Position numbers and translations under genes: made by a program. This document shows, piece by piece, positions 6,812-12,200 of a DNA stretch of 64,000 bases. A model generated the notes under the pieces. The model searched no databases, was not told the DNA's origin, and was given only the letters and a program-made list of their open reading frames with translations. Source of the DNA: an uncultured Oscillospiraceae bacterium (GTDB lineage: Bacteria; Bacillota; Clostridia; Oscillospirales; Acutalibacteraceae); assembly GCA_958366985.1 (NCBI GenBank), contig CATXDC010000004.1, positions 118,187 through 182,186 of the forward strand, written 5' to 3'. Each line of letters opens with the position of its first letter. The stretch's first letter is position 1.

Positions 6812-9406
6812 TCACCCTTTTGCATCATACCATGTTTTTCCTGTATTTACATCTGCCAAAAGCTTCACTTTCATTTTGCAGGCGTTTTCCATTTCCTCTC
6901 TAAGAATTTTCGCTGCTTTTTCTGCCTCGTTTTCGGGAGCTTCAACGATAAGTTCGTCGTGTACCTGCATTATAAGCTTGGATTCCATATTCTCAGCCTT
7001 TAATCGCTGACTTACTTTAATCATAGCTATTTTGATTATATCGGCGGCAGTTCCCTGAATTGGCATATTTCTTGCCACACGCTCACCGAAAGCACGAAGC
7101 ATTCCGTTTGAAGCGGTGATTTCAGGCAGATAACGTCTTCTTCCGAAAAGGGTCTGGGAATATCCAAGCTCCTTAGCGGTTTTGATTACTTCATCCATAT
7201 ACTTTGCAACACCTGAATAATGATTGAGATATCCCTTTATATACCTGTCCGCTTCGGCTCTTGAAACTCCGATATCCTTACCGAGAGAAAAAGCTCCTAT
7301 TCCGTAAACTATACCGAAATTAACAGCCTTTGCCCTGCTTCGCATTAAAGGCGTTACCATGTTAAGAGGCATATTGAAAACCTGAGAAGCCGTTATGGCG
7401 TGGATGTCATCGCCGTTATTGAAAGCCTCTATCATGTTTTCGTCATCCGCCATATGGGCAAGGACACGCAGTTCAATCTGTGAATAGTCAGCATCTACAA
7501 GGACACAGCCGTCCTTTGCACGGAAGAACTTCCTCAGCTCTCTGCCAAGCTCCTGACGGACGGGAATATTCTGAAGATTCGGCTCCGTGGATGAAATTCG
7601 TCCCGTTCTCGTCTCGGTCTGATTGAGGGTCGAATGTATTCTGCCGTCATCGCCGATGGCCTTTGCAAGTCCGTCACAATAGGTGGATTTAAGCTTTGCA
7701 AGAGTTCTGTATTCCAAAACGTCGGCAACTATGGGATAATCCGCTGCAAGTCCCTCAAGTACATCGGCGCTGGTCGAATACCCGCTCTTTGTTTTTTTCT
7801 TTGCTGGGATATGCATTTTCTCAAAAAGAGTGTCTCCAAGCTGCTTCGGTGAATTTATATTAAACTCAAATCCTGCCTGCGAATAGATTCTCGCTACAAT
7901 ATCCCCTATTCTGCCCTCAAGGGAAACTCCGAATTTTTTAAGTCCCTCGCCGTCAACCATAAAGCCTGTCCGCTCCATATCAGAAAGCACCAGGGCAAGG
8001 GGCAACTCGATTTTCTCCATAAGCTCTTCCTGACAGTTTTCGGAAAGCTTGCTTTTAAGAACCAGACAAAGAGGTTTTAAATAAAGTATATTCTTTACGG
8101 TGTCTGGTACATCTTCTTCCCCTGAAATCTCACAGGGAGAAACAGTATATTCTCCTGCCAGACGGACTATATCGTAATCGGAAGCCGAGGGATTGAGAAG
8201 ATATCCCCCAAGGCTTGTATCGAAAAACTCTCCTTTAAGTTCTCCGCCGAGATCCGAACAGAGAGAGGCAAAGTTCTTTATATCACAGGTATATTTTCTG
8301 ATTTTTTCGCTCTGTGAAATTCCCAGTATAAACGGATTAAAGCTTAAATCGAGAGGAGAGATTTTATAAACTTTTTCTCCGATTATAAAAGTGAAATCTT
8401 TAAAGCCGCTTTCGTCAAAATCAAAGGTGAAATATATCTCACCTGTTTTTTCTGCTTCTTCAAATGCTTCATCGGCTGAAAAACTCTTTTCATATTTTAA
8501 AGTTTCCTGCTTTATCTCCTCTGCCGCTTCTTCCTGTACATTTACTTCTACGCCGATTTTTTTGATAATGGAGAAAAGCTCAAGGGATGCAAGCATTGCT
8601 CCCGCTTTTGCCGTAGGCTCTTCTATAAGATATTTGCTCCAGTTTTTCTCCACAGGCGCTTCAAGATTTATAGTTCCTAAAGTGCGGCTCATGTAAGCTG
8701 AATCTTTACCTGCACTGAGCTTTTCACGCACACCTTTTTTAATATCAATTTCATCAAGGTGCTCATAGATGTAGTCGATATTCCCGAACCGCTGAACAAG
8801 ATCCTCGGCGGTTTTCTTGCCTATTCCGGCAACACCGGGAATATTGTCGGAACTGTCGCCCATAAGAGCTTTTATTTCGATCATGCCCTCAGGATCGACG
8901 CCGTATTCCTCTTTAAGTTTTGCTTTATCGTAAAGATTGGTTTCGGCTCTGCCCATTTTTGTTGAAGCAAGAAGCACGTTTACGTTATCACTGACAAGCT
9001 GTAAGCTGTCTCTGTCACCTGTTGCAATATAGCAAAAATCGCCATCACCGCCGCTGCGTGAAAGAGTGCCCAGTATGTCGTCCGCCTCATATCCGGCACA
9101 TTCAACGGTTTTATATCCAAGCTCTTTTAAAAGCTCCTTTAAAACAGGCATCTGTGAAGCAAGCTCCGGAGGCATCCCCTTTCTGCCGGCTTTATATTCT
9201 CCGTACATCTTATGTCTGAAGGTGGGCTCTTTAAGGTCAAAGGCAACTGCAACACTGTCGGGCTGACACTGTTCCCTGAGCTTTAAAAGTATATTTAAAA
9301 ATCCGTAAATTCCGTTAGTAAATCTGCCGTCCTTTGTAGTGAGCAGCTTTATGCCGTAAAAGGCTCTGTTTACTATACTGTTTCCGTCTATTACAAGCAG
9401 TTTCAT
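6812..9406 (-). CDS. polA: DNA polymerase I
   Basis: 864 aa. The N-terminal 5'-3' nuclease domain has GDSSDNIPGV. The C-terminal family-A polymerase motifs are RRxAKAVNFGIVYG (motif B) and VHDEL (motif C). The central 3'-5' exonuclease-like region lacks a clean DxE Exo I motif. Confidence 0.95.
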   Translation of the reverse strand: MKLLVIDGNSIVNRAFYGIKLLTTKDGRFTNGIYGFLNILLKLREQCQPDSVAVAFDLKEPTFRHKMYGEYKAGRKGMPPELASQMPVLKELLKELGYKTVECAGYEADDILGTLSRSGGDGDFCYIATGDRDSLQLVSDNVNVLLASTKMGRAETNLYDKAKLKEEYGVDPEGMIEIKALMGDSSDNIPGVAGIGKKTAEDLVQRFGNIDYIYEHLDEIDIKKGVREKLSAGKDSAYMSRTLGTINLEAPVEKNWSKYLIEEPTAKAGAMLASLELFSIIKKIGVEVNVQEEAAEEIKQETLKYEKSFSADEAFEEAEKTGEIYFTFDFDESGFKDFTFIIGEKVYKISPLDLSFNPFILGISQSEKIRKYTCDIKNFASLCSDLGGELKGEFFDTSLGGYLLNPSASDYDIVRLAGEYTVSPCEISGEEDVPDTVKNILYLKPLCLVLKSKLSENCQEELMEKIELPLALVLSDMERTGFMVDGEGLKKFGVSLEGRIGDIVARIYSQAGFEFNINSPKQLGDTLFEKMHIPAKKKTKSGYSTSADVLEGLAADYPIVADVLEYRTLAKLKSTYCDGLAKAIGDDGRIHSTLNQTETRTGRISSTEPNLQNIPVRQELGRELRKFFRAKDGCVLVDADYSQIELRVLAHMADDENMIEAFNNGDDIHAITASQVFNMPLNMVTPLMRSRAKAVNFGIVYGIGAFSLGKDIGVSRAEADRYIKGYLNHYSGVAKYMDEVIKTAKELGYSQTLFGRRRYLPEITASNGMLRAFGERVARNMPIQGTAADIIKIAMIKVSQRLKAENMESKLIMQVHDELIVEAPENEAEKAAKILREEMENACKMKVKLLADVNTGKTWYDAKG

Positions 9407-9582
9407 ATGCTTTTCTCCTTTATCTTAAAATGAGGTCTGAATTTATGTTTATAATACTTAACATTCATTATTTGCATTTCGTTTTATTGTACCACATTTT
9501 TTTCCTCATGTCAGCCGAAACAAAGGTTTATAAAACCTTACCACAATAATTTTCCCGATAAATAATGCATTTCTCGTCCCTT

Positions 9583-9591
9583 TATGCTAAA
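9583..9591 (+). promoter_or_regulatory. extended -10 promoter element (TGcTAAAAT) upstream of the first Nudix gene
   Basis: tgctaaaat about 35 nt upstream of ATG 9626 in an AT-rich divergent region shared with polA. Confidence 0.4.
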
Positions 9592-9625
9592 ATACTGTTG
9601 TTTTTTAAAAAAGGAGTGTTAAACC

Positions 9626-10087
9626 ATGGGCAACACGTTCAAAGCAGAACTTACTAACATGGTAATGGTTTACGATAAAAATACAAACCGTGCAGTTGTA
9701 CAGCAGAGGGTCAAATACTGGAAGGGCATAACCTTCCCCGGCGGTCATGTTGAAAAGGGAGAAAGCTTTATTGATTCCGCAAAAAGAGAAGTTTTAGAGG
9801 AAACAGGACTTAAAGTGGACAACCTGAAGCTTTGCGGTATTATAGACTGGTGCCACAGAAAAAGCGGCGAAAGGTACATGGTTATACTCTATAAAACCGA
9901 TACTTACAGCGGTGAGCTTATAGGTGAAACTGAGGAAGGCAAAGTTTTCTGGGCTGATATAGACGAAATACCCAACATGGAGCTTCCGCCTTATTTTGAT
10001 GATTACCTTAAAGTCTTTCTCAGCGATGACAAGCAAGAGTTTTTTGCCCCGTATGACAAGAAGAATACTGAAACAAAAATACTGTAA
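9626..10087 (+). CDS. Nudix hydrolase (MutT-like), copy 1 of 3 tandem paralogs
   Basis: Perfect Nudix box GX5EX7REUXEEXGU: GGHVEKGESFIDSAKREVLEETGLK. Confidence 0.85.
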   Translation: MGNTFKAELTNMVMVYDKNTNRAVVQQRVKYWKGITFPGGHVEKGESFIDSAKREVLEETGLKVDNLKLCGIIDWCHRKSGERYMVILYKTDTYSGELIGETEEGKVFWADIDEIPNMELPPYFDDYLKVFLSDDKQEFFAPYDKKNTETKIL

Positions 10088-10158
10088 GTAATCCTCACTT
10101 TTTAATAAAACGCACTACCACATTAATAAAAAATTCATCTTATTTGAGGTGTGAAAAT

Positions 10159-10620
10159 ATGAGTAATACGTTCAAAGCAGAACTTACCAATATGGTTATG
10201 GTTTACGATAAAAATACAAACCGTGCCGTTGTGCAGAACAGAATAAAATACTGCACAGGAATCTCCTTCCCCGGCGGTCATGTTGAAAAGGGAGAAAGCT
10301 TTGTCGATTCCGCCAAAAGAGAAGTTTTTGAAGAGACGGGACTCAAAATTGATAATCTAAAACTTTGCGGCATTGCCCAGTGGTGTCACAAGAAAAAAGG
10401 CAACCGATATATCATAATGCTCTATAAAACCGATACTTACAGCGGTGAGCTTATAGAAGAAACAGAGGAAGGCAAAGTTTTCTGGGCAGATATAGATAAA
10501 ATACAGAAAATGGAGCTTGCGCCGGATTTTGAGGATTTTCTCAAAATCTTTCTAAGCGAAAAAAATCAGGAATTTTTTGTCACGTATGACAAGAAGAATA
10601 CTGAAACAAAAATACTGTAA
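10159..10620 (+). CDS. Nudix hydrolase (MutT-like), copy 2
   Basis: Same Nudix box; start set at ATG 10159 (MSNTFKAEL) after the gaggtg RBS; the ORF track starts at 10144. Confidence 0.85.
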   Translation: MSNTFKAELTNMVMVYDKNTNRAVVQNRIKYCTGISFPGGHVEKGESFVDSAKREVFEETGLKIDNLKLCGIAQWCHKKKGNRYIIMLYKTDTYSGELIEETEEGKVFWADIDKIQKMELAPDFEDFLKIFLSEKNQEFFVTYDKKNTETKIL

Positions 10621-10689
10621 GTAATCCTCACTTTTTAACAAAACACACTACCACATTAATAAAATTCATCTTATTTGAGGTGTGAAAGT

Positions 10690-11151
10690 ATGAGCAATAC
10701 ATTCAAATCAGAATTTACCAACATGGTAATGGTTTACGATAAAAATACAAACCGTGCCGTTGTGCAGCAGAGGACAAAATACTGGAAAGGTATAAGTTTT
10801 CCCGGCGGACATGTTGAAAAAGGAGAAAGCTTTATTGATTCTGCAAAGAGAGAAGTTTTTGAAGAAACAGGACTTAAAATCGATAATCTAAAACTTTGTG
10901 GCATTGCCCAGTGGTGTCACAAGAAAAAAGGAAACAGATATATCGTAATGCTCTATAAAACCGATACTTACAGCGGTGAGCTTATAGAAGAAACTAGGGA
11001 AGGCAAAGTTTTCTGGGCAGATATAGATGAAATACCGAAAATGGAGCTTCCGCCTTATTTTGATGGTCACCTCGAAGTCTTTCTCGATGATGAAAAACAA
11101 GAATTTTTCGGCCTCCACGACAAAAAGAGCAAGGATATTTCAATTCTTTAA
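10690..11151 (+). CDS. Nudix hydrolase (MutT-like), copy 3
   Basis: Same Nudix box; start at ATG 10690 (MSNTFKSEF); about 531-bp repeat period including a conserved intergenic spacer. Confidence 0.85.
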   Translation: MSNTFKSEFTNMVMVYDKNTNRAVVQQRTKYWKGISFPGGHVEKGESFIDSAKREVFEETGLKIDNLKLCGIAQWCHKKKGNRYIVMLYKTDTYSGELIEETREGKVFWADIDEIPKMELPPYFDGHLEVFLDDEKQEFFGLHDKKSKDISIL

Positions 11152-11184
11152 TCAACATAAAATCAATTACCGAAAGGCGTTAAA

Positions 11185-12150
11185 ATGAAAATAGGAAATC
11201 TTGAAATAACAAAATATGCAGCTCTTGCTCCCATGGCGGGAGTTGCGGATAGAGCTTTCCGTGAACTGTGTGCTTCTTACGGAGCAGCTTTCACAGTCAG
11301 TGAAATGGTGAGTTCAAAAGGCATAACAATGGGCGATAAAAAATCGGGAGAGCTTATGTTTCTCTCAGATATCGAGCGTCCTTCAGCTGTACAGCTTTTC
11401 GGCTGTGAGCCGGAAACAATGGCAAAAGCGGCAATTGAGGCTCTTAAATACAGTCCCGATTTTATAGATATAAACATGGGATGTCCCGCCCCGAAAGTTG
11501 CTTCAACAGGCTCAGGATCAGCACTTATGAAAAATCCCCGTCTTGCGGAAGATGTGGTAAGAGCAGTTGTAAACGCCGTTGAGATACCGGTAACAGTAAA
11601 AATACGTGCCGGTTGGGATAAGGAAAACATAAACGCCTGCGAGGTTGCAAAAAGATGCGAAAACGCCGGAGCTGCCGCTATAACCGTTCACGGCAGAACA
11701 AGGGAACAGATGTACTCCCCTCCAGTTGACATTGACATAATAAGGCAGGTAAAGGAAAGCGTATCGGTTCCCGTAATAGGAAACGGGGACATTGAAGACG
11801 GAATTTCCGCTGCAAAAATGCTTGAGGAGACCGGCTGCGATATGCTCATGGTCGGCAGAGGAGCTTTGGGAAGACCTTGGGTATTTTATCAGATAAACTC
11901 ATATCTCAAAGACGGAGCAGTGCTCCCTGAGCCTCCTGTTTCGGAGAGAATGAGGGTAATGCTTAAACACGTTGAAACAATCTGCAAATACAAAGGCGAC
12001 TATATCGGAATGAGAGAGGCGAGAAAGCACGCCGCATGGTATACAAAGGGACTCAGAGGAGCGGCGCAGAAACGCCGTGAAATCGGCGAGCTTTCATCTA
12101 TGGAACAGCTTTATTCCCTTGCCATGGATATAGTCCGTGAAAATTCATAA
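11185..12150 (+). CDS. dusB: tRNA-dihydrouridine synthase
   Basis: Dus family TIM-barrel flavoenzyme; N-terminus ...LAPMAGVADRAFRELC and catalytic Cys region (NMGCPAPKV). Confidence 0.85.
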   Translation: MKIGNLEITKYAALAPMAGVADRAFRELCASYGAAFTVSEMVSSKGITMGDKKSGELMFLSDIERPSAVQLFGCEPETMAKAAIEALKYSPDFIDINMGCPAPKVASTGSGSALMKNPRLAEDVVRAVVNAVEIPVTVKIRAGWDKENINACEVAKRCENAGAAAITVHGRTREQMYSPPVDIDIIRQVKESVSVPVIGNGDIEDGISAAKMLEETGCDMLMVGRGALGRPWVFYQINSYLKDGAVLPEPPVSERMRVMLKHVETICKYKGDYIGMREARKHAAWYTKGLRGAAQKRREIGELSSMEQLYSLAMDIVRENS

Positions 12151-12162
12151 AAAGCTCAATAA

Positions 12163-12200
12163 CGGTAAAACCGGAGGATTTTTAGTTATCCTCCGGTTTT
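12163..12200. terminator. bidirectional rho-independent terminator between dusB(+) and the LysR gene(-)
   Basis: aaaaccggaggatttttagttatcctccggtttttt; perfect stem flanked by A and T runs. Confidence 0.65.

Follow-up and report, generated by a model that had tools for sequence, protein, structure and literature searches.

The best functionally characterised relatives of the genes described here are human MTH1 (NUDT1) and its vertebrate orthologues, single-domain Nudix hydrolases of ~155 amino acids (aa) with a complete Nudix box. We analyzed three consecutive small Nudix genes in a 64,000-nucleotide stretch of DNA (hereafter the window) from an uncultured gut Oscillospiraceae bacterium (contig CATXDC010000004.1, positions 118,187 to 182,186). 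Their products have the same single-domain layout as MTH1, which is their best functionally characterised full-length structural neighbour (template modelling (TM) score 0.77–0.80; HMMER expectation value (E) 1e-8 to 1e-11). They differ from it in that the base-recognition residues of MTH1 are replaced in the window copies. MTH1 is also not known to come in tandem copies.

In both sequence and structure, the nearest proteins are 2B06 (Streptococcus pneumoniae Q97QH6), 3EXQ (Lactobacillus brevis) and 3FK9 (Bacillus halodurans), all of the same length and architecture as the window proteins. For instance, 2B06 matches the window Nudix proteins with an E of 9e-29, 39% identity and a TM score of 0.86. 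No tandem arrangement is known for any of the three genes. Escherichia coli MutT and Bacillus subtilis YtkD share the Nudix box, the small size and partial profile matches, but the window copies score far below the curated cutoffs of the corresponding equivalog models (MutT TIGR00586, 26–29 against 97.9 bits, and NF008044, 28–33 against 148 bits; YtkD TIGR02705, 38–43 against 154.4 bits with partial coverage).

In its arrangement, the locus resembles tandem arrays under concerted evolution, with which it shares head-to-tail units, hybrid genes, incongruent segments, homogenised spacers and copy-number polymorphism. It differs from them in that homogenisation is partial and three differentiated gene types persist. 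A literature search for bacterial Nudix paralogs arranged in tandem and undergoing gene conversion returned nothing relevant. The locus is a well-documented case of a known pattern, in which tandem paralogs are partly homogenised and polymorphic in copy number, and not a new kind of system. Taken as a whole, the data make it probable that three differentiated paralogs, predicted to be single-domain, MTH1-like Nudix pyrophosphohydrolases, have long stood in tandem here under purifying selection, exchange segments with one another and are transcribed together with the downstream gene dus.

Segment exchange within the array

The open reading frames (ORFs) and their translations place the three Nudix genes head to tail on the + strand at 9626–10087 (copy 1), 10159–10620 (copy 2) and 10690–11151 (copy 3). 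Each encodes 153 aa from an ATG start preceded by a GAGG or GGAG ribosome-binding site. In the mechanical ORF list, copies 2 and 3 begin at a TTG further upstream and come to 158 aa. The GAGG ribosome-binding site overlaps this TTG and lies 9 nucleotides (nt) before the ATG; gene callers likewise give 153 aa for the Nudix copies on related contigs. All three copies match the Nudix profile PF00293 (62.9–67 bits, with copy 1 at 67 bits, against a gathering threshold of 21.1). The tandem triplication of a small Nudix gene described in an earlier reading of the letters alone (the sequence-only reading) is thus upheld. The lengths of 153, 154 and 154 aa given there hold for copy 1, and the ATG after the ribosome-binding site shortens the other two to 153.

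Units repeat every 533 and 531 bp, and the spacers on the + strand measure 71 nt (10088–10158, with a GAGG ribosome-binding site and without a terminator or RNA family match) and 69 nt (10621–10689), so that the previously reported ~531-bp period and 70-nt spacer were right as approximations. The two spacers are identical at 66 of 71 positions, and the last 38 nt of coding sequence plus the spacer match at 104 of 109 positions between units. Between copies, pairwise identity is 82–84% for nucleotides and ~80% for proteins, in agreement with the ~80–85% first estimated. The Nudix box (GX5EX7REUXEEXGU, matched as a regular expression) lies at aa 40–62 in all three copies. Its consensus residues are all identical, as had been claimed for the whole box; strict identity fails at two non-consensus positions, I/V49 and L/F57.

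Similarity among the copies is arranged in blocks. Nearly all of the site patterns at nt 169–260 of the gene unite copies 2 and 3, and all of those at nt 421–462 unite copies 1 and 2. A runs test on the three site patterns (copy 1, 2 or 3 as the odd one) gave 49 runs where 76±5 were expected (p≈1e-5), and a maximum-descent test similar to 3SEQ identified copy 2 as the best recombinant child (p≈5e-5), followed by copy 3 (p≈6e-4). Synonymous divergence (dS) varies along the gene as well: copies 1 and 2 have a dS of 0 in aa 142–153, all pairs have 0.08–0.2 in aa 89–112, and divergence of copy 1 from copies 2 and 3 is saturated in aa 61–88. Protein-level selection would not by itself give so heterogeneous a pattern. 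For 24 distinct related copies, the pairwise homoplasy index (PHI) was 0.549 compared with 0.647±0.010, and none of 2000 permutations was as low (p≤5e-4).

Related genomes carry genes of the same kinds as the three window copies, which we call alpha (copy 1), beta (copy 2) and gamma (copy 3). We polarised the sites fixed within these types against the genes of two outgroup genomes (L002 and L004). At nt 166–262, 14 shared-derived sites unite beta and gamma, and at nt 421–462, 10 unite alpha and beta, with no competing site in either block. The two blocks cannot both fit a single tree. Segment trees conflict with one another along the unit. For nt 1–165, gamma groups with alpha and beta is deep; for nt 166–262, beta and gamma copies are intermixed apart from alpha; for nt 331–420, alpha and gamma are sisters; and for nt 421–462, alpha copies mix with beta copies, with gamma and a fourth type, delta, standing apart.

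Site patterns and polarised sites make copy 2 the best-supported chimera. It is copy-3-like at nt 166–262 and copy-1-like at nt 421–462 and in the spacer, and it carries changes of its own at aa 27–33 and 121–136. Copy 1 is the conservative copy, its first ~330 nt being closest to the single-copy and outgroup genes. Copy 3, assigned to gamma from trees and polarised sites, ends in KKSKDISIL, the ancestral C-terminal state common to the single-copy genes. The sequence-only reading had attributed a mosaic pattern to gene conversion, with copy 3 as the mosaic. Exchange is borne out by the runs test, PHI, the blocks and the trees, while copy 3 as the main mosaic was rejected once sites had been polarised with the outgroups. 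One of the matches cited for it, QQR.KYWKGI in copies 1 and 3, mostly reflects a shared ancestral state from which beta alone is derived. Exchange between alpha and gamma is marked by only three shared-derived sites, at PPYF (nt ~372–381).

Could the copies instead have diverged independently, with the patchwork due to copy-specific selection and to a shared tail that the internal copies inherited from the duplication junction? We consider this quite unlikely. Much of the similarity between copies 1 and 3 is indeed ancestral with copy 2 alone derived, and the tail that the internal copies share may go back to the junction of the duplication. Restricted to synonymous changes, the runs test gave p=0.08 (42 sites, low power), so some of the clustering could stem from region-specific selection; this counts against exchange. 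Independent divergence nevertheless leaves unexplained the two incompatible blocks, each without a competing site, and the intermixing of beta with gamma and of alpha with beta within these blocks across genomes. It also fits poorly with a dS of 0 in the alpha and beta tails and the near-identical tail and spacer when the rest of the gene is saturated, with the low PHI, and with clear recent hybrids such as the second gene of the four-copy array L014 (L014_2of4). Simple divergence without mosaicism, the outcome that the sequence-only reading had set against its own proposal, is contradicted by the clustering of sites and by PHI.

We also sought the duplication boundaries by comparing the tail and spacer with the sequences that precede copy 1 and follow copy 3. 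All matches were weak (alignment score 23 against 18±2.4 for shuffles; 13 of 300 and 25 of 300 shuffles equalled the real scores), and the boundaries are therefore not recoverable. A stretch upstream of copy 1 (9527–9550) weakly resembles the centre of the first spacer (10102–10127) at 22 of 26 positions, with 13 of 300 shuffles as good, and may be a vestige of the original boundary. The conserved tail and spacer had no Rfam match at E≤1 and folded no better than shuffled sequences (z=0.78).

Gene types and copy number in related genomes

The same locus, polA followed by one or more Nudix genes and dus, occurs in uncultured Oscillospiraceae and Ruminococcaceae assemblies ~95% identical to the window in polA. 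One Nudix copy is present in L001, L012 and L019–L032, two in L003, three in the window, L010, L011, L013, L017 and L018, and four in L014 (L011 is the same contig as L015). One single-copy protein (P0023) was read on 21 contigs. The more distant outgroup genomes L002 and L004 (84–87% identical in polA) have one copy each. Copy-number states are intermixed on trees of polA and dus. For instance, the three-copy window groups with the single-copy loci L012, L019 and L020.

In the whole-gene tree, Nudix genes group by position in the array and not by genome, the first copies being alpha, the middle copies beta and the last copies gamma. Delta occurs among single-copy genes and as the third copy of L011. 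The types are orthologous across at least six independent genomes, the order alpha-beta-gamma recurs, and 17 residues are fixed inside each type and different between types.

Some arrays contain hybrids of these types. In the four-copy array of L014 (4001–6062), L014_2of4 is a clean hybrid that joins a beta head (MSNTFKAEL…QNRIKYCTGIS) to the body and tail of alpha, as a recent unequal crossover would be expected to produce. In the two-copy array, the second gene (L003_2of2) combines beta and gamma sequence. The middle copies of L010 (4489–4959) and L013 (4534–5004) are alpha-like and not beta-like. In both, a 14-nt deletion between a pair of AATACTG direct repeats close to the 3' end leads to an altered 156-aa protein C-terminus (…KKNTVSNPHFLI).

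The divergence between the types is old. Paralog dS (0.60–0.84) exceeds ortholog dS (0.11–0.36), and the ratio of nonsynonymous to synonymous divergence (dN/dS) is 0.14–0.19 for the Nudix copies and below 0.5 even in variable patches. Together with the 17 fixed residues, these values indicate an old array in which all three genes are maintained. A recent dosage amplification, in which triplication would have served to increase the amount of enzyme and the differences between copies would be neutral drift, is for this reason very unlikely. Units that run head to tail at regular spacing with shared spacers, and a copy number that varies among relatives, are what amplification would give. The paralogs are nonetheless more diverged than the orthologs, the types are orthologous across genomes with their diagnostic residues fixed, and dN/dS is about 0.15 in each copy. 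The dosage amplification offered by the sequence-only reading was accordingly abandoned in favour of copies that are old, differentiated and orthologous across genomes.

We propose that the array evolves by homologous recombination between the 531–533-bp units, through unequal crossing-over and gene conversion. In the simplest origin, unequal crossover in a two-copy array would have produced a middle copy whose body resembles the last copy and whose tail and spacer resemble those of the first. Conversion would then have gone on homogenising tail and spacer, as suggested by a tail dS of zero and by orthologues that are intermixed within blocks. The same recombination process acting in a species-level population would yield arrays of one to four copies and fresh hybrid genes. 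Because the three types persist under purifying selection, exchange is confined to tracts and leaves the paralogs diverged.

Flanking genes and transcription

The array lies divergent from polA, as was noted from the start. This gene (6812–9406, - strand) encodes DNA polymerase I (864 aa) and forms the conserved left flank. Its orthologues carry the Pfam domains 5_3_exonuc and DNA_pol_A and are 97–98% identical at the amino acid level in related loci. On the right, dus (11185–12150, + strand), a tRNA-dihydrouridine synthase of 321 aa (Pfam Dus on orthologues), starts 33 nt after copy 3 and is likewise conserved. The context of the locus is one of housekeeping genes (tsaD-rimI-polA and dus), with no mobile or defence neighbours among the related loci.

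Direct reading of the sequence upstream of copy 1 revealed an extended -10-like element, TGCTAAAAT (9585–9593, + strand). The element (TGnTAAAAT) and the following ACTGTTGTTTTT are kept in all 12 aligned genomes, outgroups at 85–87% identity in polA included. It is missing from the hexamer scan list because its -35 is poor. We regard it as the probable operon promoter. No terminator-like site was found on the + strand from 9350 to 12150. Just after dus, a strong hairpin with a 13-bp stem (6 GC pairs) and T-runs (12167–12200, + strand) lies between the convergent dus and LysR-family genes and is probably a bidirectional terminator. The lack of terminator-like sites up to dus and the hairpin after it suggest that the three Nudix genes and dus probably form one transcription unit, with dus last and its end at the hairpin. 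These results agree with the promoter and co-transcription of the copies proposed by the sequence-only reading, in that the element is conserved and the copies have no terminator between them.

Promoter-like motifs (ATGACA-16-AAAAAT, 9 of 12 matches) also occur at the 3' end of copy 1 (10053–10080) and of copy 2 (10586–10613) and are kept in all spacers and internal junctions of related arrays. They could be internal promoters or merely part of the homogenised tail. Matches of this quality arise at chance frequency in this AT-rich DNA.

On the - strand, a promoter-like CTGACA-17-TACAAT with an upstream TG (9486–9514) faces polA. Together with the extended -10 on the Nudix side, it would mark the gap between polA and the array as a divergent promoter region. 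Nearby in this intergenic region, L010, L013 and L014 have a 10-bp deletion.

Close relatives differ in what lies between dus and the LysR gene. This gap holds a 434-aa melibiase (alpha-galactosidase) gene in L010 (6515–7819), L013 (6560–7864) and L014 (7115–8419), a 124-aa ORF without a Pfam hit in L017 (6609–6983) and L026 (4541–4915), and nothing in the window, L011, L012, L018 and L019.

Predicted pocket and biological meaning

The AlphaFold model has a pLDDT (predicted local distance difference test) of 92.9. Its nearest structures in Foldseek are 2B06, 3FK9 and 3EXQ, followed by MTH1, with which it shares 24–29% identity over the full length. The top PDB matches are all Nudix proteins (TM 0.7–0.86), which identifies the fold as the alpha/beta/alpha one of that superfamily. 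No NCBIfam equivalog reaches its cutoff for any copy, and hence no specific name can be assigned.

In MTH1, the base is recognised by Trp117, Asp119, Asp120 and Asn33 (PMC7745060). In a profile alignment with MTH1, aa 121–124 of the family align with W117-P118-D119-D120. The family has P/A/S121, P/Q/R122, Y/D/H123 and F124 at these positions, and the equivalent of Asn33 is K/T33 or T/S36. Because the recognition residues are not matched, the substrate is unlikely to be recognised in the manner of MTH1.

The most variable patch of the family, aa 121–127, falls on the loop and helix through which MTH1 recognises the base. It is also diagnostic of type, with P/A/P at position 121, Y/D/Y at 123 and D/E/D at 125 in alpha, beta and gamma, respectively. 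A second diagnostic patch, near the Asn33 equivalent, has Q/N/Q at 27, W/C/W at 32 and K/T/K at 33. That the most variable, type-diagnostic patch coincides with the base-recognition region suggests that the types differ in substrate. On this basis we consider the chances about even that alpha, beta and gamma bind different nucleotide-type substrates. The three enzymes would then be a small house-cleaning battery for different (deoxy)nucleoside-triphosphate-type substrates. A role in nucleotide-pool sanitation, as put forward in the sequence-only reading, is plausible from the MTH1-like fold.

A more far-reaching possibility is that the array serves to diversify a nucleotide-hydrolysing enzyme at the level of the population, with recombination shuffling the pocket-forming cassettes (aa 27–36, 72–86 and 121–136) and shifting copy number between one and four. 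We regard this as unlikely. If true, the set of Nudix specificities would differ from strain to strain within a single gut Oscillospiraceae species, and selection might come from phage-modified nucleotides, signalling nucleotides, or nucleotide analogues of dietary or host origin.

Still less probable is a conflict-driven system of defence or counter-defence, in which a diversifying Nudix set with shuffled pocket cassettes would destroy phage-modified or signalling nucleotides. The concentration of variation at the predicted base-recognition patch, and presence/absence and copy number that are polymorphic within the species, would suit such a system. Even the variable patches, however, evolve under a dN/dS below 0.5, the type-specific residues are kept across genomes and do not change fast, and the neighbours are housekeeping genes. 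The Nudix core also matches the PADLOC candidate PDC-S07 weakly (33–37 bits), but at the level of generic Nudix similarity.

The least probable alternative is an assembly artefact, either single-copy strain variants concatenated or a repeat mis-resolved in a metagenome contig: although the window proteins are on record on only one 182-kb NCBI/ENA contig, probably from a metagenome-assembled genome, units share no exact repeat longer than 56 nt, below the usual length of reads and k-mers, the internal junction (tail NTETKIL plus the ~70-nt spacer) occurs in every multi-copy assembly from various samples and assemblers and is absent from single-copy haplotypes, and the order alpha-beta-gamma recurs. 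The sequence-only reading had named a different copy number as the sign of such an artefact; copy number does differ among relatives (1–4), but as a polymorphism among independent assemblies.

Several points, together with the synonymous-only runs test, weigh against a long-lived array of differentiated, exchanging paralogs or against parts of that reading. All of the related arrays come from short-read metagenome assemblies. The single-copy genes may be ancestral-like alleles or products of contraction, and more than one order and direction of the exchange events would fit these data. The alignment to MTH1 is a profile alignment at 25–29% identity with an MTH1 sequence entered by hand, and the register of the N-terminal patch (aa 29–36) is ambiguous by ~3 residues. 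Finally, 2B06, 3EXQ and 3FK9 are structural-genomics entries whose function is listed as undetermined (PMC5389931).

The locus shows in compact, natural form how bacterial paralogs in tandem can persist, its types staying differentiated while exchange makes chimeras. If the types differ in substrate, the natural hybrids, such as a beta head on an alpha body, would be a ready domain-swap series for finding the determinants of specificity. Such a series would serve the uncharacterised MTH1-like Nudix subfamily that includes 2B06, 3EXQ and 3FK9.

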